Origin: Verrucomicrobiota bacterium
Lineage (GTDB): Bacteria; Verrucomicrobiota; Verrucomicrobiia; Limisphaerales; UBA9464
DNA length: 64,000 bases
Assembly: GCA_947471985.1 (NCBI GenBank)
Contig: CANIZL010000009.1
Span: 21,810-85,809 of the forward strand
Reading direction: 5' to 3'
Position 1 is the first letter of the stretch; every line of letters begins with the position of its first letter. The position numbers and the translations under genes were made by a program. Shown here one piece after another: positions 8,601 through 44,472 of the stretch. Below the pieces are notes generated by a model that saw only the letters and a program-made list of their open reading frames with translations, was not told where the DNA came from and made no database searches.

Positions 8601-9770
8601 ATGAATTCCCGAGTTCTTTTGGCCTGCGTGGTGGCGGGTTGCCTTACCGGTTGCGCGGGTCTGGTCTTTGAACCTGCCCCGGGTGGATCGGCCCCGTCGC
8701 CGACGCCCGAGCGTCCTCCCAGCGCGCCGGCTCCGGCGCCTTCCACCTCCTCCAAATCGGGCGCCAGCAGCGGCGGTGGACGGCGAACTCCGTCGACTCC
8801 CACGCCACCGCCAGCCAGCCCTTCGGCTCCCGCTCCTGCGCCGGTTCCGGTGCCGGCGCCCAAATCTTCGGCCGATGTCCCGGGATCCGTGGGCGACGCC
8901 ATTCGCCGCAATCGCGGGGCGGATCGGCTGGTGCTGCGGGATGCCAATCGCCCGGTGCTGGAGTTCCAGGCGCGGCCGTTGCTGCCGGCGGGTGTGCCCG
9001 AGCTGTATCGCCGCGGGGGGTACGTCGCCCGGATCTTTACGCCGAGCGGTCGTTTGATCAGCGATGATTTTGCCCCGAAGCACATTCATCATCACGGCCT
9101 TTGGGCGGCCTGGACCAAGACGGCTTTTGAAGGGCGGCACCCGGACTTCTGGAACATGGGCGAAGGCAAGGGCCGCGTGCAGTTCCTGGATTTGGATGTG
9201 TCCACCGCCACGCACGTGCGTTCCCGCCAGCGGTATGTCGATATGACCGTGGTGCCGGAAAAAGCGGCGCTGGAGGAAACCTTCGACGTGCAGCTGCGGC
9301 CATCGATCGCGGGCGCCCGTCCGGCGCACGTGTTTGATGTCACCCTGACCCAGAATTGCCTCACGGCATCACCGCTGGAGCTTTCCGAGTATCTGTACGG
9401 CGGATTGGGTTTCCGGGGCAACCGGGATTGGGACGGGGCGGCGAACTGCCAGTTCCTGACCAGTGAAGGGATTTCGGATCGGGTCCAGGCGCACGCGACC
9501 AGGTCCCGTTGGTGTCACATCAGTGGGTTGGTGGACGGACGACGCGCGGGGATAGTGATCCTCTGTCATCCGGGCAATTTCCGGGCTCCGCAGCCGATGC
9601 GGGTGCACCCGAACGAGCCGTTTTTCTGCTATGCCCCACCGGCCGGCGGGACCTTCAGCATTCAACCGGGGAAACCGTATTCCGCTCGGTATCGCTGTGT
9701 GACCTTCGACGGCGAGCCGGACCGGGCCTGGCTCGATCAACTCTGGCAGCAATTCGCGGCGGGGCAGTAA
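8601..9770 (+). CDS. Lipoprotein with Pro/Ser-rich linker and DUF6807 ('PmoA family') domain
   Basis: Lipobox LTGC; long P/S/A linker; DDFAPKHIHHHGLW, DFWN, YGGLGFRG, HPxNFRAPQP motifs. Confidence 0.75.
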   Translation: MNSRVLLACVVAGCLTGCAGLVFEPAPGGSAPSPTPERPPSAPAPAPSTSSKSGASSGGGRRTPSTPTPPPASPSAPAPAPVPVPAPKSSADVPGSVGDAIRRNRGADRLVLRDANRPVLEFQARPLLPAGVPELYRRGGYVARIFTPSGRLISDDFAPKHIHHHGLWAAWTKTAFEGRHPDFWNMGEGKGRVQFLDLDVSTATHVRSRQRYVDMTVVPEKAALEETFDVQLRPSIAGARPAHVFDVTLTQNCLTASPLELSEYLYGGLGFRGNRDWDGAANCQFLTSEGISDRVQAHATRSRWCHISGLVDGRRAGIVILCHPGNFRAPQPMRVHPNEPFFCYAPPAGGTFSIQPGKPYSARYRCVTFDGEPDRAWLDQLWQQFAAGQ

Positions 9771-31333: not shown

Positions 31334-34300
31334 TCAGCCCTTGGTGATGGTTTCGTCGAGGTTCAGCAGGGCGCGGGCGAGAGTGATCCACGCGGCCCAC
31401 TCGGCGGCCCGATCGGAGTTCTCGCCGGTGAGGGTTTTGGAATTGAGTTCACCGCTCGCGACCCGTTGCTGTTGTGCCTGGAAAAAGCGCGTTAGGGCGG
31501 CGGTTTCCTCCTCGGTTGGTGGACGCGAGGTGCAACGGCGGAACCCGTAGCGCACCCGTTCTTCCACGGTTCCCTCCCGGGTCATCAGCAGGCGGCCCAG
31601 GGCGCGGGAGGCGTCCACGAGCAACACATCGTTCAGCAGGGTGAGCGCCTGCATGGGCGTGTTGGAGACATCACGGCGGGCAATACAGGCTTCGCCGCTC
31701 GGAGCGTCGAAGGTGTTGAACAGGGCGAAGGGGGCGCTGCGTTTCATGAAGGTGTAAACGCTGCGCCGATAGCGATCCTCACCGGAGCTGGCGGGCCACG
31801 ACGCGCCGCCGTACGCCGCCTCGGTGACGCCGGAAGGTTGTGGCGGATAGACGCTTGGGCCGCCCATTTTCGAGGAAAGCAATCCGCTGGCCTGCAGCAC
31901 ACTGTCGCGGATCGCCTCGGCATCAAGGCGGGACCGGGGACCGCGGGAGAGCAGTCGGTTTTCGGAGTCGCGGGCGAGCCGATCCGGTGTGGTGCGGGAG
32001 GCTTGTTGGTACGTCGCGCTCAGAACCATTAGGCGATGCAGTTTTTTCAGAGACCAACCCTGGTTCATGAATTCCACGGCCAGCCAATCGAGCAATTCCG
32101 GGTGCGAAGGCGCTTCGCCCTGCAGTCCGAAATCATCCGTGGTGCGCACCAGGCCGCGGCCGAACAGGGCCTGCCATTGCCGATTTACGGTGACGCGGGC
32201 GGTGAGGGGATTGCTGCGCGACACCAGCCAGCGGGCGAGTCCGAGGCGATTGCGGGGCAGGTCGGGAGTAAACTCGGCCACCGCTGCGAAGGCGCCGGGC
32301 GTAACAACTTCGACGGGTTGCAGATATTCGCCCCGGTTATGTCGATGGGTCAGCCGGGGGTTCTCCGGCGGGCGTTCCCGCAGGACCATCGTCGTGGGAT
32401 ACGGGGCGGGACGACGGAGCTTTTGAATTTCGGCCGCGGCGGTCGCCAATTCGGGAAGCTGCAGCAGACACTGTTCGCGCAAGGCCTGTCGCTGACGGGG
32501 GGTGAGTTGGGCATCGGGCACGGCCAGCAGGGCTTCGATATCCTCGGGGAGATCCAGGGCCTGCGCACCGCCGGGGCGGGTGGTGACGGAAATGCGGAAG
32601 CGTCCCAAGGAACACGCGTAGTGTCGGCCGAAGAAAAGCTTCAGCTGCCACGGAGCGATTTGGGCGGTGGGCTCGGCGAGATTGAACACGGCCGAATGGC
32701 GTTCGCCTTCGCGACCCGCCGTCGACCAACCGGTCTGTGGATCGCCATCGACGGCGAGGGAGGCGCTGGCGTTGCTGCCGAAGTTGTTCTTGGCGTAACT
32801 GTGCGTCGCGCTGGCAAATTTAACCGGTCGATCACCGGCGGTGAGTTGGAATTCGCCGAGGAAGAAATCGCCCTTGGGACCTTCGTAGTACGCCAGACCG
32901 GGACCGTGCCGGGGCAGCCGTTCGTCCGGCAGGGCTTCCAGTCGGACGGCCGTAATGCCTGTGATTTCGGGCGCAAACGACAGGTCGTAGGTATCGCTCT
33001 TGGTGATATCGCCGCTGGCCAGGACCGAGGCGTCGGGTTGCGGCGTCAGCAGGGGCGAGTTCGACGTGGCCTTGCCGGGGCGCAGGGGAATCCAGGTCGC
33101 GGCGCGGGAACGCATTTCCGTGAGCCAATCAGCGAAGCGCTTTTCCACGGCTTCGGTTCGGCGAGCGGCGAGCGAGCGGCCGCCCCCGTCCGGCGTGCCA
33201 AAACTGACGCGGGGACGACCCACGAGGTGGTGACTGCCAAAAGGCTGTTCCAACCGGATGACCCAGCGGGTGCCGCCGGGAAAGCCCACCGGCTGCGCCA
33301 GCGTCAGGGTAGCCTGGTGCGGGGTGTTGAGGCGGCCTTCCCCGACATCGACCGCCCAACCGGTTTCCGGATGGCCATCGATCAAGTTGGACGCCGGAAA
33401 ATCCTTTTGCTCCACGTCGGCCCGGACACTGGCCACCTTCACCGGTTGCACCTGGTCGGGAGTGGAGCGGGGAGCGGCGGTGATCACGATTTCTCCCAAG
33501 ACGAAGTTGCCGTGCGCCACCCGGCCGGGACCGTGTTTTGGCAGGGCATCGTCGGTCAGGGTTTCCAGACGGAGCGAGTCGATGCCGGTGGCCTCGGTGT
33601 CGATCACGAGAGTGTACACATCGCGCTCGGGCGCGGGCTGATCGAAAAGTACCGATCCGTCTGTCAAAATCCGTCCCCGTTCGCCGCTCGCTGCCTCGGC
33701 GGAAATCGGCGGGGGCGTGTGCCAGAGGATATTCGTAATCGGAAAGCGCTGCGGTAACTCCGCCAGCAGACGATCGGCCTCGAGGAGGTTCCTGGCCTGA
33801 CGGGCCGCGGCACCGGGCGGGGGCAGATCGAGGTCGGGCTCTTCGGCATTGTTGAGCAAGGCCATGAGCTGGTAGTACTCGCGGTGCAGCAGCGGATCGT
33901 ACTTGTGGGTGTGACATTGAACGCAGCCCACGGTCAGGCCCAGCCAGGTGGTTCCGGTGGTGTTGACGCGATCAATGGTGGCGAGGAAGCGGAACTCCAA
34001 CGGATCAATGCCGCCCTCCTCGTTGAGCATCGTATTGCGATGGAACCCGGTGGCGATGCGTTGGTTCAACGTGGGTTCCGGCAATAAATCGCCCGCCAGC
34101 TGTTCCACGGTGAATTGATCGAAGGGCAGGTCGGCATTGATCGCGTTGATGACCCAATCGCGCCAGGGCCAGATGGTCCGCTGACGGTCCTTCTCATAGC
34201 CATTGGTGTCGGCGTAGCGGGCGAGATCCATCCAACGACGTCCCCAGCGTTCACCGTAATGCGGTGATTGCAGCAAGCCGTCGACGAGTTTTTCGTAGGC

Positions 34301-34912
34301 ATCCTTGGCGGTGTCTTGAACGAAGGCGTCCGCCTCTTCGGGCGTGGGGGGCAATCCGATGAGGTCGAGATAAACGCGGCGCACCAGGGAGTGTCGACTG
34401 GCGGGTTCCGATGTTGCCAGACCCTCGGCTTCGAGGCGGGCGAGGACGAAGTGGTCGACGGGATTGTGGGGCCAGTCCTTGGCTTTGACGGCGGGCAGTG
34501 GTGCCTGGCGGGGCGGGACGAAGGCCCAGTGGGGACGGTATTCGGCTCCGTCGGTGATCCATTGCTGGAGGGTTTCCTTTTCGGCGGCACTGAGTTGGGA
34601 CTTGGTACTCGGCGGCGGCATGACCTCGTCGGGATCCGCGCTGAGGATCCGTTTAACGAGTTCGCTTTTAGGGGCTTGTCCCGGAACCAGTGCGATGGCC
34701 CCTGATTTTGCGGGTCGCAGGGCGTCCTCTCGTTGGTCCAGGCGCAACTGGCTCTTGCGTTTGGCGTCGTCGGGCCCGTGGCATTTGAAGCAATGGCGGG
34801 CCAGGATGGGGCGCACCTCACGGGTGAAGTCGGGTGGGCTCGCGGCGGATAAAGCCGCATGGAAGGTGCTGGTGAGAAGCACTCCCAATAATCCCAGACG
34901 TGGCCGAATCAT
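31334..34912 (-). CDS. PSCyt1-DUF1549-DUF1553 (PSD1) planctomycete cytochrome c protein with two inserted beta-sandwich modules
   Basis: CFKCHG, PHYGERWGRRWMDLARYADT, CVQCHTHKYDP, PSHPELLDWLAVEF, RLDAEAIRD, TPMQALTLLN. Start placed at ATG 34912. Confidence 0.92.
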   Translation of the reverse strand: MIRPRLGLLGVLLTSTFHAALSAASPPDFTREVRPILARHCFKCHGPDDAKRKSQLRLDQREDALRPAKSGAIALVPGQAPKSELVKRILSADPDEVMPPPSTKSQLSAAEKETLQQWITDGAEYRPHWAFVPPRQAPLPAVKAKDWPHNPVDHFVLARLEAEGLATSEPASRHSLVRRVYLDLIGLPPTPEEADAFVQDTAKDAYEKLVDGLLQSPHYGERWGRRWMDLARYADTNGYEKDRQRTIWPWRDWVINAINADLPFDQFTVEQLAGDLLPEPTLNQRIATGFHRNTMLNEEGGIDPLEFRFLATIDRVNTTGTTWLGLTVGCVQCHTHKYDPLLHREYYQLMALLNNAEEPDLDLPPPGAAARQARNLLEADRLLAELPQRFPITNILWHTPPPISAEAASGERGRILTDGSVLFDQPAPERDVYTLVIDTEATGIDSLRLETLTDDALPKHGPGRVAHGNFVLGEIVITAAPRSTPDQVQPVKVASVRADVEQKDFPASNLIDGHPETGWAVDVGEGRLNTPHQATLTLAQPVGFPGGTRWVIRLEQPFGSHHLVGRPRVSFGTPDGGGRSLAARRTEAVEKRFADWLTEMRSRAATWIPLRPGKATSNSPLLTPQPDASVLASGDITKSDTYDLSFAPEITGITAVRLEALPDERLPRHGPGLAYYEGPKGDFFLGEFQLTAGDRPVKFASATHSYAKNNFGSNASASLAVDGDPQTGWSTAGREGERHSAVFNLAEPTAQIAPWQLKLFFGRHYACSLGRFRISVTTRPGGAQALDLPEDIEALLAVPDAQLTPRQRQALREQCLLQLPELATAAAEIQKLRRPAPYPTTMVLRERPPENPRLTHRHNRGEYLQPVEVVTPGAFAAVAEFTPDLPRNRLGLARWLVSRSNPLTARVTVNRQWQALFGRGLVRTTDDFGLQGEAPSHPELLDWLAVEFMNQGWSLKKLHRLMVLSATYQQASRTTPDRLARDSENRLLSRGPRSRLDAEAIRDSVLQASGLLSSKMGGPSVYPPQPSGVTEAAYGGASWPASSGEDRYRRSVYTFMKRSAPFALFNTFDAPSGEACIARRDVSNTPMQALTLLNDVLLVDASRALGRLLMTREGTVEERVRYGFRRCTSRPPTEEETAALTRFFQAQQQRVASGELNSKTLTGENSDRAAEWAAWITLARALLNLDETITKG

Positions 34913-35173
34913 GCGGACAAGCTTCGCGAAGCTGACCGGAATGCGAAACTGTTTTGGCGGCGGAGGACGCAGGAATCCGGAAACTCCCCGGCCGCGGGGC
35001 GGGCAAAAAACGGGGAGCAGGTGGGGGCGGCGAAGTTGGCCCAAGTGGAGTGGTGGATGGCCGTAGCCCTCATCCGCTTTCGCGCCGGGACGGTTGGGCT
35101 GAATGATTGCCGAAATTCCCACGGCGGAGGCGTTGCTCTTCTTCGGGCGCAGAGGTTCCCGTCGGCCCTCATT

Positions 35174-35209
35174 CCAAAGCGGTAGAGGGCAACCGCAGTC
35201 CAGGACGCT
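35174..35209. repeat. Probable REP-like palindromic element
   Basis: CCAAAGCGGT-agagggca-ACCGCAGTCCAGGACGCT with GCGGT/ACCGC stem; resembles an intergenic repeat class I recall from PVC genomes. Single copy in the window. Confidence 0.4.
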
Positions 35210-35482
35210 ACCGCGATTTCTCTTGCGGCGGATAAATTCCGCGGGGGCTTTGATGGCTGTGGTCCTTAGCCCGTTCGCCCGCCGAGAGAGGAGCTGAGCT
35301 AGTGCCGTGCGACTTGCCTATTCCACGTCGTCCTTTCCAGGGGCGCTGGCCGAGTGCACGTTCAAGTCGTTCATCGACGCGTTCGCAGCGCAACTGAGCT
35401 TGGATCCGCTGGGACGCATTAGGGGAAGTTGGCCATCCCAATACGGACCGTGAGGAGCGAAGAAGGGCAATACGTGTAATCT

Positions 35483-37616: not shown

Positions 37617-39350
37617 TTAAAGCGGCTTCAGCATGTGGTAGCTGTGGCACGTGGCGCAGTTGGCCGGGGCGCCGTTTTCCGTGTGACAGTCGATGCACGC
37701 CTTCAGGCCGGCATTGCGATCGGCCGCGGAAAGCATGGTGGCCGTCTGATGAGGTAGATTGATGTCAGATGTCCGGGTGCTTTGGAGCACGGTGCCATGG
37801 CACTCCAGGCAGGTGATCCGCGGCGACGGATGTTTGGCGTGATTGAAACGTCCACCCGGCAGCCAGCGGTCGGGTATCCGCGGACGGGTCACCTGCGCCT
37901 GCCCCTGCGCGTCACGGGTGACCTCATGACAATATGCGCAGCCCGCGTAATGGGCGCGTTTGCCGGTGCTGCCCTGATCCTCGGGAAACATCCGGGGGCG
38001 GGGATCGCCGGTGAATAAAATCAGGTCGAGCAATTGCTCCCCCGTGCCCAGCAGGCGGCGGACGCGGTCGGCGTTGGCGCGGGCAAAGTCATCGATGCGC
38101 GCGCGGTCCGTCTCGCCGCGGATGCGGGCGAGGTTGGCATACTGGACCTGGAGCGTGGCCAGACTGGCGACTCCCGCCCGCACGGCTGCAGGCGACGCAT
38201 GGGGGAGTTTCATCTCGGGGTTTACCGGATCGAACTGCAGGGAATGACAGGACTGGCAATGCAGGTCGAAGCGGATTCGTGCCATGTAAGCGCCGGTGGA
38301 ATCGGGCTGGTGACAATCACGACAATTGAGTCCGCGGGTCTCGTCGACGCCCGCATCCGCCATCCGGACCGTGGTGCCGAAGTGCAGTTGGTGATTGAAC
38401 TTGAGCGTATTCCCATCCTTGAGCCCGGCCACGTGGAGTCCGAAGTCCGGATGGCCATCCCAGTAGTGGGCGAATTGATTGGTCCGGCCTCCCGCCCGAC
38501 GCGGGGTGATGAAGGCGCTGAGGCCCGGGACCAGGGGGGGATGGAAATCCAGCGGGTCGTCGGTGCTCGGGCGGGTGAACCGCCGGAGGGCGGGGCCGTC
38601 GTTGTGACAACTCGCGCAGGTCTCATCACGGGGTGCGGCCAACTGGCGTCCCTGATGTTCCCGATGACAATCGGTGCAGGAATGCGCCGCTACGACCGTG
38701 GGCTGATGGCGATCGTGATCCGCGTGGCAGGCGAGGCAATTGCGCTCGTCCATTCGGCTGTGGTGATCCGTTTTGGCCAGCGCCAGTTGTTTCCAATCGA
38801 AGGGGCCGGGCCGGGCGCGGAACGCCGTTTGCAACCACTGCCCCAGTCCCCCTTCGGCGGCCTCGTGGCACCCCGCACAACCACTCGAGCCGAAGTGGGT
38901 GAGGGCGTCGTGTTGGAATCCCGGGCTGCCGTGGGGTTGGGAAACCGGGCCGGGCGAGATGAAGGCCCAGCGCCAGGGACCAGCGCACAGCAGCACGAGC
39001 AGTCCGATGGTAAACGAAATGGTGGCCAGCGTCAGCCGGCCGCGCAGGCGCCGCAGCGAGCTTTGAGGGACGCACGGGATGATGGGGCAGCCGCATTGGC
39101 CGTCGGGGCCGGGGCCGGTGGCACAAGGACCGCCCGCCTCCCGGGACCGCGTGCATTTCCAACGTCCCTTGGTTTCACCGGGGCGAACCTCGAGCAGGGG
39201 GCGGCATTCCGCGGTGGAGCGACAGTGTCCGCCCGGGCTGGGTCCCAGGCGGCAGGGTTTCCCCTCGCAGGTGCGACCGCAGACCCAGGCCTGGTTGGGT
39301 CGCTCGTATTGGGAGCGATCAAACTCGGGTGCGGGTAGGGGATCGTTCAT
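37617..39350 (-). CDS. Membrane-anchored decaheme cytochrome c with Cys-rich N-terminal domain
   Basis: Ten CxxCH motifs: CAGCH, CLACH, CTDCH, CASCH, CRDCH, CQSCH, CAYCH, CLECH, CIDCH, CATCH; cytochrome c3-like FNHxxH motifs; one TM. Start placed at ATG 39350. Confidence 0.92.
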   Translation of the reverse strand: MNDPLPAPEFDRSQYERPNQAWVCGRTCEGKPCRLGPSPGGHCRSTAECRPLLEVRPGETKGRWKCTRSREAGGPCATGPGPDGQCGCPIIPCVPQSSLRRLRGRLTLATISFTIGLLVLLCAGPWRWAFISPGPVSQPHGSPGFQHDALTHFGSSGCAGCHEAAEGGLGQWLQTAFRARPGPFDWKQLALAKTDHHSRMDERNCLACHADHDRHQPTVVAAHSCTDCHREHQGRQLAAPRDETCASCHNDGPALRRFTRPSTDDPLDFHPPLVPGLSAFITPRRAGGRTNQFAHYWDGHPDFGLHVAGLKDGNTLKFNHQLHFGTTVRMADAGVDETRGLNCRDCHQPDSTGAYMARIRFDLHCQSCHSLQFDPVNPEMKLPHASPAAVRAGVASLATLQVQYANLARIRGETDRARIDDFARANADRVRRLLGTGEQLLDLILFTGDPRPRMFPEDQGSTGKRAHYAGCAYCHEVTRDAQGQAQVTRPRIPDRWLPGGRFNHAKHPSPRITCLECHGTVLQSTRTSDINLPHQTATMLSAADRNAGLKACIDCHTENGAPANCATCHSYHMLKPL

Positions 39351-39361
39351 GGCCGGGGGAG

Positions 39362-40195
39362 TCAGCGGGTCGTGGCGCCGAGGGAAAAGCCGTGCACGAG
39401 GATCAAATGAAGACCGGTGGCGAGAAGCAGGCTGTAGGTGAGGGGAATGTGTACGAAGAGCCACCACTTGAGGCTCGATTGCAGGGCGTACTGATGATCC
39501 AGGCTGTCCTTTTGCTGAACGAGGGCACCCAGTTCATCGAGTCGCTGTTTCTGTTCCGGAGTCAAAAACCGACCCAGATCCTCCATGCGCGCGCGCAGTT
39601 GGTTCAGGGGTTGATCGCCGGCGAAAAGATGTTGCGAGAAATTGCGGGGACCGCGGAAGAAGTCGGCCAATTGGGTGCTGTAGAAGTCCGCAATGGTCGT
39701 GGTGTGACCGGTGGTGACGGATTCCAGGGCCAGGGCTTCGGCGCGATCCTGCAGGGCGCGGCGGATGAGGGGAATGCGTTCGTAAAGGACTTCGCCGCCG
39801 CGGCTCGTCAGCCGGCCGGGGACATATCGGGACCACCACAAGCCGACCACGCCGGAGCCGGCGACGATGACGAAGAGCAGGGCGAGGGTGATTTCGAAGC
39901 CCCCCTGCGGCAGGCGCCAGGAGACGTGGGCGAGAAACAGGGCCGCGGAAAAATACCCGAGATAGACGTGGAGTTGCAGCCAGAGTCGCGAGCTGCCCAA
40001 GGGAAGGAACGGCAGCTTCTTGCGCGCGTTGTACAGGGTCAGGAAAATCATGAGACCCAGCAGGGCCCAGCCGGTGAAGTAGGCGAGGTGTCGCAGGCTG
40101 GGGACGAAATGCCGCCAGACCCAAACCAGTGCGAGAATCGCGACCAGCAGGACGCCGGTCCGACTCAGGCGGCGGATCCAGAGATGCGCGCTCAT
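39362..40195 (-). CDS. Ferric-reductase-like transmembrane (putative di-heme b) protein
   Basis: Two helices each with a His pair 14 residues apart: LHVYLGYFSAALFLAH and VHIPLTYSLLLATGLH; about 5 TM with a soluble helical insert. Confidence 0.75.
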   Translation of the reverse strand: MSAHLWIRRLSRTGVLLVAILALVWVWRHFVPSLRHLAYFTGWALLGLMIFLTLYNARKKLPFLPLGSSRLWLQLHVYLGYFSAALFLAHVSWRLPQGGFEITLALLFVIVAGSGVVGLWWSRYVPGRLTSRGGEVLYERIPLIRRALQDRAEALALESVTTGHTTTIADFYSTQLADFFRGPRNFSQHLFAGDQPLNQLRARMEDLGRFLTPEQKQRLDELGALVQQKDSLDHQYALQSSLKWWLFVHIPLTYSLLLATGLHLILVHGFSLGATTR

Positions 40196-40222: not shown

Positions 40223-41947
40223 TCAGGGGTTAATCCACCGAGCAAAGCGGTCGAGGCTGGTCATGTCGATGCGCCGGAGCGCGTCGTGCGGGCAGGCGCG
40301 TTCGCAGGCCGGGCCGCCGTATTGCTCCAGGCACAGATCGCATTTGGTGGCCTTCAAGATCGGTTTGAGGGATTCGTCGGTGACAAAAGCCCCCTTGGCA
40401 TTGCGCACTTCCACCATGCGGATGGCCTCGTAGGGGCATTGATTGGAACAGGTGGAGCAGCCGATGCAGGTGGCCTGGTTGATCACCACGTTGCCGCGGC
40501 GGGAATCCCGGTGGATGGCGCCGGTGGGGCAACCGATCATGCAGACGGGATCCACGCAGTGCATACAGGCCTGGGCGATCTGGATGCGGCCGCTGCTGGG
40601 ACCGTGGCGGAGAAACCGGGGATTGTTGCCGTGCGTGGCGGCGCAGGCGCGTACGCAGTCGTCGCAGCGGGTGCATCGATCGAGATCGATGGCCATCGTT
40701 GCCGTACCGTTGAAGATCCGGTTGGCGGTGAGGAACTCCATCATTTCGGGCCCGATGCCCGGCTGCTGGGCGCCCAGGTCCAACGAAGGATCCTCATCGT
40801 CCTCGGCCAATTCCTCGGCGGTGAAGGCTGCGGGGCGCAGGGCAGGGGGCAGACCCGGCAGCACCAGTTCTTCCAGGACTTCGCGAGGAACGAACAAGGT
40901 GTGGGTGTAACCCAAGGCGCGGAGCGTGCCCTGATAAAGTAGGAGCGGAGTCTCCGTCCCGCGTCGCAGCCAATTGTGCAGGACCTCCCGCAGGCCGAAG
41001 ATTTGCCCGGCGCCCAAATAGTTCAGGGTGCGTTGTCCGGCGCCGAAGGAACGTGTAAGGCGGGCGAAGCCGGAGCGCACGATGAAGAGGCCCGCCGCCG
41101 CGGTGTTCTGTCCCGCGATGAGCTGCTCAATCTCCGGGTTTAATGTCCCTTTCTGGGCCAATTTCTTGTATTCGCCCGACCAGCCGTAGGAGCCAAAGGT
41201 GCCGAACTCGACCCGGCTCTTCAGGACTTCGTGCTGGGCTTCGCTGAGATGCTGAAAGAGCGGGATGGCGCGCAGGGCGCTGGAGAGTACGTTTTTGCGA
41301 TAGAGGTCGTCGATGCGGTGCTGGAATTTCTGATCGGCGAGGAGGGCCTTGAGTCCCTGCCACCGTACTTCCAGCAATTCCACCTCGCCCGACTCAGCGA
41401 AGATGGAGGCGGTCCGGGGCATGCGGGAGAGGGCGGCGATTTCGCCGAAGAATTCCCCTTCACCAAGGGTGGCCGTCTTGTGCTGCGAAAGGATGCGGGG
41501 CACGTCCTGGAGGAACACCCGGACTTCGCCGGCTTCGGAGATGGTGCTGCCGACGATGGGGGCGAGCGCGGCGGGTTTGCGGACCTCGGGTTCGGCGGAA
41601 GAGGACCAGAGCTGAGCGATGACGCGCCAGATCGATCGTTGGCGCGCCTCTCGTCGGCCCAGCATGCTTTCCGGGAGACCCGGTTGGAGCACCACGCGCA
41701 CGGAACCGCTGAGCACCAAAAATGCGGAGGACCCGTAGTCGCCGGAACGCACCACAATTTCCCCACTACGGAAACGGCGCACGCGACAGTGGTTCTGCAG
41801 GATTCGCCGAAGTTGGTCGGCGGGCAGCGACATATCCTTGAAGGGAGCAACAGCCAGCAGGCGCTCGGCGTCGGCGTCGGCAAACGCCGGATCAAACGCG
41901 GCGTCCTCCTCGCTTAATCGAGCAATTCGCAGATGCGTGGTTTCCAT
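40223..41947 (-). CDS. Tandem cyclic-nucleotide-binding domain protein fused to a 4x[4Fe-4S] (DmsB/NrfC-type) ferredoxin
   Basis: PBC FGEIAALSRMPRTAS; second degenerate CNB; CTRCDDCVRAC, CMHCVDPVCMIGCP, CIGCSTCSNQCP, CDLC..GPACERACP. Confidence 0.9.
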   Translation of the reverse strand: METTHLRIARLSEEDAAFDPAFADADAERLLAVAPFKDMSLPADQLRRILQNHCRVRRFRSGEIVVRSGDYGSSAFLVLSGSVRVVLQPGLPESMLGRREARQRSIWRVIAQLWSSSAEPEVRKPAALAPIVGSTISEAGEVRVFLQDVPRILSQHKTATLGEGEFFGEIAALSRMPRTASIFAESGEVELLEVRWQGLKALLADQKFQHRIDDLYRKNVLSSALRAIPLFQHLSEAQHEVLKSRVEFGTFGSYGWSGEYKKLAQKGTLNPEIEQLIAGQNTAAAGLFIVRSGFARLTRSFGAGQRTLNYLGAGQIFGLREVLHNWLRRGTETPLLLYQGTLRALGYTHTLFVPREVLEELVLPGLPPALRPAAFTAEELAEDDEDPSLDLGAQQPGIGPEMMEFLTANRIFNGTATMAIDLDRCTRCDDCVRACAATHGNNPRFLRHGPSSGRIQIAQACMHCVDPVCMIGCPTGAIHRDSRRGNVVINQATCIGCSTCSNQCPYEAIRMVEVRNAKGAFVTDESLKPILKATKCDLCLEQYGGPACERACPHDALRRIDMTSLDRFARWINP

Positions 41948-41965: not shown

Positions 41966-43270
41966 TCAGGCATCCAGGGTCACATTCCCCACGGGGCAGC
42001 CGACGCAAGTCAGGCAGGAGCCCGCTTCGACGCTGAATCCCGGGGCGTCCTTGTAAACGACTTCGCCGACGCGGACTGCCACGGCGCACGAGCCACAGCT
42101 GCCGGCGCCGCAGCCGTAATCGATCCGCACCTGTTGGGCGGCGGCGAGTTCGTAGAGGTTGCTGACGGAACCGTCCCAGACTGCGGTCTTGCCCGACTTG
42201 GCGAAGGTCACGGTAGCCCGGGCGGTTTCCGGTGCGGCGGTGGTGGCCGGCTTGGCCTGGCTGACGCGTTTGACGCTGGCGGGGCCGAACGCCTCGAAGT
42301 GGATGCGCTCGTCGGGGACACCCCACGCGATGAGTCCCTCGTACATGTCCTTCATGAACGGACCGGAGCCGCACATGAGGAAACTGTAATTATTCGACGG
42401 CAACAGCTCCTTGAGCAGATCCGGGGTCAGGCGGCCCTCGCGGTCGTAGTGCCGGCCCCGGATTTCCTGGGGACCGGGACGGGAATAGCAGACCACGACG
42501 TGGAGGTTCTCCAGCGGCCGCAAACGTTCGATGTCGGCCCGCAGGATGTGTTCCTCACCATTGCGGCAGACGAAGAAAAACCAGGCCTCCCGCTTGGATC
42601 CACTGGCGGCGATGGCATTGGCCATGGTCAGGACGGGGGTGATGCCGACGCCGGCGCCCATCAGGACCACCGGCGTGGTCTGGGCGAGGTCGAGGTAGAA
42701 GTGCCCGCTGGGCGCCTTGACGTTGAGCAGATCGCCGACCTGGGCTTTCTGGGTGAGAAACGAGGAACCGACGCCCGGCGGGATGCCGGGTTTGTCTTTG
42801 GGGGACTTTTCCCACTTAATGGTGAGCCGGTAGTAGTCCTTGACCGCATCGCAGTCGGACAAGGAGTAGCACTTCACCACCTGCTTGGTGCGCCCGGGAA
42901 TGTCGAGGCCGAGCGTCAGGTACTGTCCGGGCTTGAACCCCGGGAGCGGTTTGCCGTCGTGCGGCTTGAGGTACAGGGAGTAAACCCCATCGCATTCGAA
43001 GACCTTCTGATCGACCCGGAATTTGCGATAGCCGTTCCAGGTGGCCTTGCCGGCCTCGGCCTGCTGCAGTTCGGCTTTGGCGGCGCGGACCAGGTGATGG
43101 AGCCGCTCCTGCTCGAGGGTCAACTGGCGGCTGCGGGCGAAGAAGCGCCGGACGGCACTGGCGACGGCCAGACCCGTCTGGATGGCCACCCCGGCGAGAA
43201 TGGCCCAACCGATAAACAATCCCGGATTGCTTCGGAGCCCCTCCGAATTCAAAAAGATAAGGGGTTGCAT
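41966..43270 (-). CDS. N-terminally anchored FAD/NAD(P)H oxidoreductase with C-terminal [2Fe-2S] ferredoxin (FNR/PDR-like)
   Basis: TM IGWAILAGVAIQTGLAVA; FKPGQY, CYSLS, GVGS, GAGVGITP, MCGSGPFM, FEAFG; CGAGSCGSC...C. Start placed at ATG 43270. Confidence 0.92.
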   Translation of the reverse strand: MQPLIFLNSEGLRSNPGLFIGWAILAGVAIQTGLAVASAVRRFFARSRQLTLEQERLHHLVRAAKAELQQAEAGKATWNGYRKFRVDQKVFECDGVYSLYLKPHDGKPLPGFKPGQYLTLGLDIPGRTKQVVKCYSLSDCDAVKDYYRLTIKWEKSPKDKPGIPPGVGSSFLTQKAQVGDLLNVKAPSGHFYLDLAQTTPVVLMGAGVGITPVLTMANAIAASGSKREAWFFFVCRNGEEHILRADIERLRPLENLHVVVCYSRPGPQEIRGRHYDREGRLTPDLLKELLPSNNYSFLMCGSGPFMKDMYEGLIAWGVPDERIHFEAFGPASVKRVSQAKPATTAAPETARATVTFAKSGKTAVWDGSVSNLYELAAAQQVRIDYGCGAGSCGSCAVAVRVGEVVYKDAPGFSVEAGSCLTCVGCPVGNVTLDA

Positions 43271-43332
43271 AATGCGCCGCACTTTGTGTATCCAAGAATG
43301 GTGCGGCTTGTAAACCGCATTGCACATAAACC

Positions 43333-44472
43333 GTGATGATCTTTTTTAACCGGCTTTTTCGGGGAATATTTTTGTCGATCCTGGCCGTGACGGCCACGGC
43401 GGGAGAATCGCCGCTGGCGCGGTTTGTGGGCACCCCGGCCTGTGCTTCGTCGTCCTGTCACGGTGGGGCGGGGCCGCAGCGGAATCAGGTGGGCCGGTGG
43501 GAGTCGCTGGATGTCCATCGGCGGGCGGCCAGTACGCTGCAGGTGGCTCGTTCAGAACAGATTGCCCGGGGATTGGGACTTACCAATTCGCTGGGGCAAT
43601 CGACCGCCGCCCAAAGCCCGCGTTGCACCGTCTGCCACGCCCCCAATGCCCTGGTACCGGCCGCGGCGCGTCGGGTGGAACTGGACGCGACCGAAGGGGT
43701 GGCCTGCGAAACGTGTCACGCTCCGGCGGAACCTTGGTTGCGCAGTCACACGCGCCCCGGTCCGCCGCGGGATGATTTTACCCGGGCGGACAAGGTGGCG
43801 GCCGGGATGCGCGATCTGCGGGATTTGCGGGTCCGAGCCAATGTTTGTGTGGCGTGCCACGAGAATGTGCCGCGCGAGTTGCTGGCGGCGGGACATCCGG
43901 AATTGCTGTTTGAACTGGATGGACAAACCCGGCAGGAGCCCCGGCATTGGGTGGAGCGCGCCGGTCCGCCGGCGGGGTATCAAGGCGCGCAGGCCTGGTT
44001 GGTGGGGCAGGCGGTGGCGTGGCGGGAAGTGGCGTGGCAGTCGAAGGATCCCGCTGAAACCTCCGAGCGCTTGGTCGCCCGGGAGGCGGGATTGGCATGG
44101 CTCGTGAGGCGGGCCGCCCAGTCGGTGGGCGTCACTGATGGCACGCCCGATGCCGTGGCCCGGGCCGTCGCGACGCGGGTTTGGACGACGGCCGATACCG
44201 CCACGGTGCTGCGGGTATTGGCGGGTTCGTCGGAGGATTTTCGGACGCCGGCGACGCCGGTGGCGGTGCAGGCCCGGCGCGCGGAACGCCTCGTTCTGGC
44301 GCTGGATCGGCTCCTGGCGGCCAGCCCGGCGGCCACCGCTCAGGCGGCCGATGAGGCGTTGAGTTCGTTGTTTCAACTCGCTCAATGGTTGCCGGATTTC
44401 GCCCCGGCCCGTTTTGCGGCGGCCCTGGAGGTCCTGTCCGGGAAGCTCCCCGTTTCTCCCCCGGTCCCGTAA
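43333..44472 (+). CDS. Secreted cytochrome c554-like multiheme protein (4 heme motifs)
   Basis: Signal peptide; FVG..ACASSSCH (CX4CH), CTVCH, EGVACETCH, CVACH, AAGHP; helical C-terminal half. Confidence 0.85.
   Translation: MMIFFNRLFRGIFLSILAVTATAGESPLARFVGTPACASSSCHGGAGPQRNQVGRWESLDVHRRAASTLQVARSEQIARGLGLTNSLGQSTAAQSPRCTVCHAPNALVPAAARRVELDATEGVACETCHAPAEPWLRSHTRPGPPRDDFTRADKVAAGMRDLRDLRVRANVCVACHENVPRELLAAGHPELLFELDGQTRQEPRHWVERAGPPAGYQGAQAWLVGQAVAWREVAWQSKDPAETSERLVAREAGLAWLVRRAAQSVGVTDGTPDAVARAVATRVWTTADTATVLRVLAGSSEDFRTPATPVAVQARRAERLVLALDRLLAASPAATAQAADEALSSLFQLAQWLPDFAPARFAAALEVLSGKLPVSPPVP

Follow-up and report, generated by a model that had tools for sequence, protein, structure and literature searches.

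A verrucomicrobial PtdE-type protein joins tandem CNB domains to a ferredoxin: a candidate cyclic-nucleotide-gated electron relay

A gene in the genome of a Verrucomicrobiota bacterium raises the question of what two cyclic-nucleotide-binding (CNB) domains might do on an iron-sulfur (Fe-S) ferredoxin. The gene lies at 40223..41947 (-) of a 64,000-nt stretch of contig CANIZL010000009.1 (hereafter, the window), and translation of its open reading frame (ORF) gives a protein of 574 amino acids (aa). An initial annotation of this DNA had recognized cyclic nucleotide monophosphate (cNMP)-binding domains fused to a polyferredoxin, which the ORF and its Pfam domains confirm, and had set it against the usual fusions of CNB domains to helix-turn-helix, kinase, channel or enzyme outputs. 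The architecture is not new, as a protein listed as cNMP-binding and 4Fe-4S, and credited with two clusters, appears in a 2024 preprint under the name PtdE, within a ptdABCDEFG operon that was reported from saline habitats and whose function was stated as unknown (bioRxiv 10.1101/2023.11.21.568154). This preprint was all that literature searches for the CNB-ferredoxin architecture returned; the protein type has been named once, as PtdE, and is barely described. We propose that the PtdE-type protein is, on balance, probably a cyclic-nucleotide-gated Fe-S relay in a quinone-independent electron conduit from NAD(P)H to the periplasm.

Domain composition and conservation of the PtdE-like protein

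Pfam matches the cNMP_binding family (PF00027) to the protein with an E-value of 6e-25 in three stretches, which correspond to two CNB domains with the first one split, and places Fer4_7 and Fer4_11 over residues ~458–557. The features of the gene are listed below, with the evidence for each in brackets.

40223..41947 (-): PtdE-like protein, predicted cytoplasmic, with the order CNB1 (split), CNB2, linker, four-[4Fe-4S] ferredoxin (Pfam, NCBIfam, Cys motifs, orthologs)
41363..41827 (-): CNB1, residues 41–195, a canonical β-roll including an insert (Pfam, model, alignment to known CNBs; coordinates verified by translation)
41489..41686 (-): 66-aa insert in the β4–β5 loop of CNB1, residues 88–153 (alignment, conservation; low predicted local distance difference test (pLDDT) score)
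41408..41458 (-): phosphate-binding cassette of CNB1, GEFFGEIAALSRMPRTA, residues 164–180 (conservation in 83 orthologs, alignment)
40883..41251 (-): CNB2, residues 233–355, divergent (Pfam, conservation, model)
40754..40831 (-): variable acidic linker, residues 373–398 (26 residues; the lowest conservation of the whole protein)
40268..40687 (-): HycB/HydN-like ferredoxin domain, residues 421–560, with 16 invariant Cys (Pfam, NCBIfam, Cys motifs, conservation)

The first CNB domain is the more canonical of the two. Strands 1–4 extend up to residue 87 and are followed by the insert, strand 5, the cassette and strands 7–8. The initial annotation had noted an insert of ~70 aa and a preserved cassette at this position, and both were borne out. 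The insert, 66 aa long, has conserved residues of its own (P89, L91, G97, R98, Q112, W114, E121, L146, Q147, D148 and P150), and the PF00027 cassette pattern, G-E ... R-[TS]-A, is present as FGEIAALSRMPRTA, with G168, E169, R175 and R178 invariant in 83 orthologs. With the insert removed, CNB1 aligns without gaps to the functional cGMP sites of Plasmodium PKG, and also to the regulatory subunits of protein kinase A (PKA-R), Epac, SthK, MloK1 and HCN4. The R-T-A sequence alone does not discriminate between cAMP and cGMP.

A full-length AlphaFold2 model was built from a 30-sequence alignment. Its mean pLDDT is 62.8, with values of 70–90 in the CNB cores and low values in the CNB1 insert and the ferredoxin. 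The β-roll fold is indicated by the Pfam match, by the pLDDT of the CNB cores and by Foldseek, in which the best Protein Data Bank (PDB) matches of the N-terminal half of the model are the tandem CNB-A/B domains of PKA-R and PKG (E 7e-15 to 1e-13). The PtdE-like protein shares with these (6rsx, 4z07 and 2qcs) two consecutive CNB domains and a canonical CNB1 cassette. It differs from them in having neither a kinase partner nor a pseudosubstrate, in the inserts in its CNB domains, in a remodelled CNB2 cassette and in the C-terminal ferredoxin. The TM-scores of these matches are low (0.2/0.4), and the relative orientation of the domains is not readable from the model.

In the C-terminal half, 16 of the 17 Cys fall into four motifs at residues 425, 461, 494 and 536 (CxxCxxCxxxC, CxxCx4CxxxC, CxxCxxCxxxC and CxxCx8CxxxC). 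All 16 are 100% conserved in the 83 orthologs, in line with the 16-Cys polyferredoxin noted initially, and indicate four [4Fe-4S] clusters. The closest relatives of solved structure are cytoplasmic proteins, HycB3 of the hydrogen-dependent CO2 reductase (7qv7_A, E 3e-16) and HycB of formate hydrogenlyase, and in NCBIfam residues ~414–569 align with HydN (E 3e-18), the N-terminus of AegA, DmsB, HybA, DsrO and NrfC. No ferredoxin equivalog assignment was adopted, as all scores are far under the NCBIfam cut-offs (65.8 bits vs 260 for HydN, 59 vs 214 for DmsB and 36.9 vs 378 for NrfC). The first description of this domain as DmsB/NrfC-type thus stands at the level of the DmsB superfamily, within which the domain appears to be of the cytoplasmic HycB/HydN flavour rather than of the exported NrfC/DmsB kind. 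With HycB3, HycB and HydN it shares the cytoplasmic location, four [4Fe-4S] motifs in the same order and the same long loop before motif 4; its partners are different, and it is preceded by a sensor extension of 420 residues.

Exported NrfC/DmsB subunits carry a twin-arginine signal peptide. In the 574-aa protein neither a hydrophobic segment nor a twin-arginine motif was found, and the N-terminus, METTHLRIARLSEEDAAF, contains no RR motif. We therefore predict that the PtdE-like protein is cytoplasmic and made without a signal peptide; the initial annotation had likewise noted no signal or Tat peptide.

Conservation extends over both halves. Full-length orthologs, present in 82 related loci, are 46–83% identical to the PtdE-like protein. 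In a more diverse set of 123 family sequences with at most ~50% mutual identity, E169 is present in 102 (83%) and R178 in 105 (85%), and none of the 16 Cys occurs in fewer than 119. The cassette Glu and Arg, whose fate in homologs had been singled out initially as a check on nucleotide binding, are thus conserved across the family as well as in all 83 orthologs. The mean frequency of the majority residue is 0.74–0.75 in the CNB1 core, 0.69 in CNB2 and 0.82 in the ferredoxin, and falls to 0.31 in the linker 373–398. From these values the sensor half appears to be under selection and nearly as constrained as the ferredoxin, to which it would be flexibly tethered.

The conserved five-gene module

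The PtdE-like gene is the third of a five-gene module. In tblastn searches of the 82 loci with the five proteins, the order proved fixed in nearly all of these loci, which span Verrucomicrobiota, Planctomycetota, Poribacteria and others. The FNR-type reductase is present in 79 of the 82, the membrane protein in 78, the decahaem cytochrome in 76 and the tetrahaem cytochrome in 69; loci that lack a partner mostly end at a contig end. The reductase, the PtdE-like gene, the membrane protein with five transmembrane (TM) helices and the decahaem form a tight same-strand run, from which the tetrahaem gene diverges. The partners in the window are as follows.

41966..43270 (-): PtdC-like reductase, with an N-terminal TM helix, Hmp-like FAD- and NAD(P)-binding domains and a C-terminal plant-type 2Fe-2S domain (Pfam, NCBIfam, conservation)
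39362..40195 (-): PtdF-like 5-TM membrane protein of 277 aa with a cytoplasmic helical domain, a candidate dihaem b protein (TM prediction, conservation, model)
37617..39350 (-): PtdG-like decahaem cytochrome c, with a cytoplasmic N-terminal domain, one TM helix and ten CxxCH motifs outside (Pfam, motifs, conservation)
43333..44472 (+): PtdD-like tetrahaem cytochrome of the c554 family with a signal peptide, divergently transcribed (Pfam, motifs, synteny)

These partners are equivalent to PtdC, PtdD, PtdF and PtdG of the published operon, in which they are described as an FAD/NAD(P) oxidoreductase, a tetrahaem cytochrome, a ferric-reductase-like protein and a decahaem cytochrome, and in which a pentahaem PtdA and a porin PtdB are also encoded (bioRxiv 10.1101/2023.11.21.568154). 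Two of the collected loci, L081 from a Phycisphaeraceae metagenome-assembled genome (MAG) and L082, contain a pentahaem, a putative porin and C, D, E, F and G, arranged as in the published operon. The proteins in the PtdE position of these loci are 49% (L081, residues 1–573) and 47% (L082, residues 15–573) identical to the PtdE-like protein. On the strength of the gene order and full-length identity, we assign the 40223..41947 (-) gene as a probable PtdE ortholog, where the identity with the PtdE of the preprint follows from gene order and content. Compared with that operon, the locus has an inverted ptdD, contains neither ptdA nor ptdB, and encodes a PtdE-like protein with four clusters indicated rather than two. 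Neither ptdA nor ptdB was found in the window, and a search of the whole genome returned one weak fragment for PtdA (26% identity, E 2.6e-5) and no match for PtdB. The locus thus appears to be a core ptdC–G variant. In L081, the otherwise tight operon is interrupted between ptdE and ptdF by an N6/N4 DNA methylase gene (8780-9604 (+)).

At the NAD(P)H end of the module, the PtdC-like reductase matches the reductase module of Hmp with an E-value of 2e-69. Its ORF is open to 43327 (453 aa), and the likely start is M20 at 43270, giving 435 aa. A spacer of ~62 bp (43271-43332) separates this start from that of the tetrahaem gene and includes a 7-bp inverted repeat, GCCGCAC ... GTGCGGC. A scan for promoters and terminators over 36.8–44.8 kb gave nothing above the shuffled background, and no sigma-70-like promoter was found in the spacer.

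The PtdF-like protein has four invariant His, H76 and H90 in TM3 and H249 and H263 in TM5, arranged as i/i+14 pairs on parallel helices. Both helices run from inside to outside according to the positive-inside rule, and this common direction together with the His pairs suggests that a haem would lie close to each side of the membrane, an arrangement found in ferric-reductase domains. In NADPH oxidase (NOX)-type proteins the His are spaced i/i+13–14 on two parallel helices. The AlphaFold model, with a pLDDT of 90, shows the five TM helices and the cytoplasmic helical domain. Sub-threshold Pfam matches of the family members are weak, with DUF4405 in 19 of 31 and cytochrome b561/Ni_hydr_CYTB in 13 of 31. 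Membership of the NOX/ferric-reductase family (PF01794) was considered and found unsupported, as it is matched by two of the 31 members at E 0.69, the protein has five TM helices and not six, and there is no significant PDB match.

The PtdG-like decahaem has a Cys-rich N-terminus. This region (39050-39350 (-)), on the cytoplasmic side of the TM helix, has eight Cys in two repeats that are invariant in 66 orthologs (C24, C33, C43, C49, C66, C76, C86 and C93, numbered from M40); it may be a metal site or a ferredoxin-docking domain.

Natural variants of the family bear on the place of the ferredoxin. In P0136 (843 aa) and P0202 the ferredoxin runs straight into a PtdF-like homolog, which puts it on the cytoplasmic side, N-terminal to the membrane protein; in P0202, His replaces the cassette Arg. 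The initial annotation had taken the ferredoxin as the only output of the CNB domains. Instead, the protein is a subunit of a five-gene module, naturally fused to the membrane subunit in some relatives. Other variants (P0128 and P0194) have two FHA domains at the N-terminus or an FHA domain inserted between CNB1 and CNB2, and there are further large inserts between the two CNB domains among P0128, P0194 and P0189. The FHA-bearing variants represent a second kind of signalling input and point to a regulated subunit.

Proposed gating of the conduit and its alternatives

The observed domain composition, cofactor-ligand motifs, family-wide conservation, synteny and natural fusions can be assembled into an electron path, for which we infer the haems b, the direction of flow, the ligand and the gating. 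NAD(P)H would reduce the FAD of the membrane-anchored, Hmp-like PtdC-like reductase, whose 2Fe-2S cluster would pass electrons to the four [4Fe-4S] clusters of the PtdE-like protein. Two bis-His haems b of the PtdF-like protein, inner and outer, would then carry the electrons across the membrane to the periplasmic side, where they would end in the PtdG-like decahaem and the PtdD-like c554-like tetrahaem, the quinone pool being bypassed along the whole path. The tandem CNB domains would provide the regulatory input. CNB1 would bind a cyclic nucleotide from one of the class III cyclases of the cell, four genes for which are present in the genome, and ligand binding would alter the contact of the tethered sensor with the ferredoxin or its partners, by docking on them or by exposing them. 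The wire would thereby be turned on or off, the switched quantity being the flux through the transmembrane conduit, and the conserved β4–β5 insert of CNB1 is a candidate contact surface. A gate would make sense in that ungated electron export would drain NAD(P)H and oppose the membrane potential. Because the 26-residue linker is flexible, variable and poorly conserved, a gate that works by docking or occlusion, in the manner of PKA-R and its partner, is more likely than rigid allostery.

Parts of this path have counterparts in known systems. In formate dehydrogenase-N (1KQF), the four-cluster ferredoxin FdnH likewise passes electrons to a dihaem b membrane subunit, FdnI; FdnH is among the sequence matches of the ferredoxin domain, and the FdnI family (Ni_hydr_CYTB) is among the weak matches of the PtdF-like protein. 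The topology is inverted, however: here the ferredoxin is predicted to be cytoplasmic and has no TM anchor, flow is presumably outward and there is no evidence of a quinone site. NADPH oxidases, ferric-reductase proteins and Fre-MsrQ resemble the proposed conduit in that electrons from a cytoplasmic NAD(P)H flavoprotein enter a stack of two bis-His haems for quinone-free export; they have six TM helices instead of five, and here a 2Fe-2S and four [4Fe-4S] clusters would be interposed and multihaem cytochromes would be the acceptors.

The architecture and a second-messenger action on electron transfer fit all computed evidence and are in this sense partly supported. Literature searches turned up no second-messenger gating of an electron wire as a form of respiratory or redox regulation. 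The more specific claim, that a cyclic nucleotide on CNB1 switches a quinone-independent NOX-like conduit on and off and so places electron export to the periplasm or exterior under second-messenger control, is one that we advance tentatively, at somewhat less than even confidence.

Several results weigh against the proposal. The prediction that the PtdF-like protein binds two haems b has its basis in the His patterns; no Pfam family scores above the cut-off, and a Foldseek search of its model against the PDB gave helical-bundle matches that are not significant (best E 0.17). The outward direction of flow is suggested by analogy with FNR-type reductases. The sensor-ferredoxin interface is unreadable in the AlphaFold2 model, in which the insert and the ferredoxin are badly placed. 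In about 15% of the diverse set the cassette Arg or Glu is missing, which suggests that nucleotide control is not universal in the family. Finally, CNB2 reads FGLREVLHNW..., with the Glu displaced (G-L-R-E, not G-E), and departs from the PF00027 cassette pattern. Its cassette, GQIFGLREVLHNW...TLRALG at 40910-41008, is ~12 residues longer than the canonical one, and a 20-aa insert carries the invariant residues W256/Y260/K261. The initial annotation had called CNB2 degenerate and devoid of the Arg. Degenerate it is, but R343, at the start of β7, occupies the canonical cassette Arg position and is kept in 92% of the orthologs and 67% of the diverse relatives.

These features of the CNB domains invite the best of the alternatives, in which the Fe-S relay subunit and the module are the same but the CNB domains sense nothing and electrons flow constitutively. 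As a structural adaptor, these domains would keep the ferredoxin in place on one of its neighbours, be it the reductase, the membrane protein or the Cys-rich N-terminal region of the decahaem. The degenerate CNB2, the large conserved inserts in both CNB domains, which resemble interaction surfaces, and the retention of all 16 Cys by the members without the cassette Arg or Glu would all agree with an adaptor. Yet the cassette positions that touch the cyclic phosphate and ribose are all invariant in the 83 orthologs, drawn from several phyla, which is unexpected for a purely structural β-roll, and CNB1 scores best against proven cNMP sites. We consider an adaptor unlikely.

Alternatively, CNB1 might be a genuine sensor of another nucleotide or metabolite. 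Candidates would be a cyclic dinucleotide or a 2',3'-cNMP, a pyridine nucleotide, or a nucleoside, the kind of ligand taken by trypanosome PKA-R. CNB folds accommodate a range of ligands, nucleoside-binding trypanosome PKA-R structures are among the Foldseek matches, and R175, the extra invariant Arg of the cassette, could together with the conserved insert give the pocket another shape. However, the Gly-Glu...Arg-Thr-Ala cassette characterizes sites that bind 3',5'-cyclic phosphates, this Arg has been lost in the nucleoside-binding proteins of trypanosomes (judging by the names of converting mutants among the Foldseek matches), and class III cyclases are encoded in the genome; such a ligand seems somewhat less probable than an adaptor.

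The direction of flow could also be the reverse, from an external donor through the multihaem cytochromes, the membrane protein and the ferredoxin to NAD(P)+, with uptake under CNB control. The chain is formally reversible and inward flow would be assisted by the membrane potential, following the redox-loop principle of Fdh-N (1kqf_B is among the ferredoxin matches). FNR/2Fe-2S reductases of the Hmp, PaaE and GbcB types normally oxidize NAD(P)H, though, and haems of the c and b types generally have far higher potentials than NAD(P)+, so that we regard inward flow as improbable.

Least probable of all, with very little to recommend it, is the converse arrangement raised by the initial annotation, in which the clusters sense redox state, O2 or NO, as Fe-S clusters do in the CRP-family protein FNR, and set the cNMP affinity of a nucleotide buffer or signalling adaptor that is not a wire: it finds no support in the gene context, as four clusters in a HycB-type arrangement constitute a wire, strict synteny with the reductase, the candidate dihaem protein and the cytochromes and the membrane-protein fusions favour through-transfer, and no downstream signalling output is present. 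FNR and CooA are likewise proteins in which a CNB-type β-roll is accompanied by a redox cofactor, an Fe-S cluster or a haem; there the cofactor is the sensor and a helix-turn-helix domain the output, whereas the PtdE-like protein has no DNA-binding domain and its clusters are predicted to form a wire.

Distribution, flanking genes and significance

The proposed gated relay belongs to a large family. More than 4,800 clusters at 90% identity match it, the best 120 of which are all full length; 515 clusters at 50% identity do so with E <1e-30, and at least 527 species genomes of GTDB r232 contain a relative. Within the phylum the distribution is patchy, with a relative in 11 of 301 sampled genomes. 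The published operon came from saline habitats, whereas the relatives found here are mostly from Verrucomicrobiota of freshwater, groundwater, peat and soil. Cultured carriers are Verrucomicrobia bacterium IMCC26134 and Ca. Uabimicrobium amorphum, in addition to the proteobacterial hosts given in the ptd preprint. One genome of the phylum has, beside the full-length copy, a second, shorter paralog (G290:C1:272125-273153), a 349-aa frame that matches residues 226–572 and so comprises only CNB2 and the ferredoxin. Eight contigs with a typical verrucomicrobial module (L010, L011, L018, L026, L031, L033, L069 and L074) are titled as Klebsiella pneumoniae, Akkermansia muciniphila, Chitinophaga pinensis or Bifidobacterium MAGs from lake or environmental samples; these titles look like placeholder or wrong names.

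In 25–33 of the 82 loci (e.g., L002, L017, L049, L059, L061, L062 and L075), three extra genes flank the core. They encode an HbpS-like secreted protein of two domains (~590 aa), a protein of ~870 aa whose C-terminus (...NFTY) resembles an outer-membrane barrel, and a decahaem cytochrome of ~1,300–1,365 aa with a C-terminal LVIVD β-propeller. In the genome studied here the trio is encoded on a separate contig, C74:

6950-8926 (-), 8395-11379 (+) and 10821-15482 (+): flanking-gene trio on contig C74

The C74 barrel and decahaem-propeller proteins were compared with PtdB and PtdA and rejected as their homologs, as there is no BLAST similarity. The trio may nevertheless play the same formal role as PtdA/PtdB, that of an alternative outer-membrane electron outlet, and its presence supports the view that the core feeds an outer porin-cytochrome-like device. 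In the window, 2.3 kb downstream of the module, a 1,327-aa PSCyt1/PSCyt2/PSD1 (DUF1549/DUF1553) protein is encoded at 31334-35317 (-). Such proteins are typical of Planctomycetes and Verrucomicrobia, and no link of this one to the module was found in other loci.

If the proposal is true, the PtdE-type protein would provide the first example of direct second-messenger action on an Fe-S electron relay, as opposed to action on transcription, a kinase or a channel. The module would then offer a quinone-bypassing path by which electrons of cytoplasmic NAD(P)H reach multihaem cytochromes. This path would be widespread in lake, groundwater, peat and soil members of the Verrucomicrobiota and Planctomycetota, groups whose part in metal, humic or nitrogen-oxide redox cycling is poorly understood. 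As the family is large and cleanly delimited and has cultured carriers, the gating hypothesis is directly testable.

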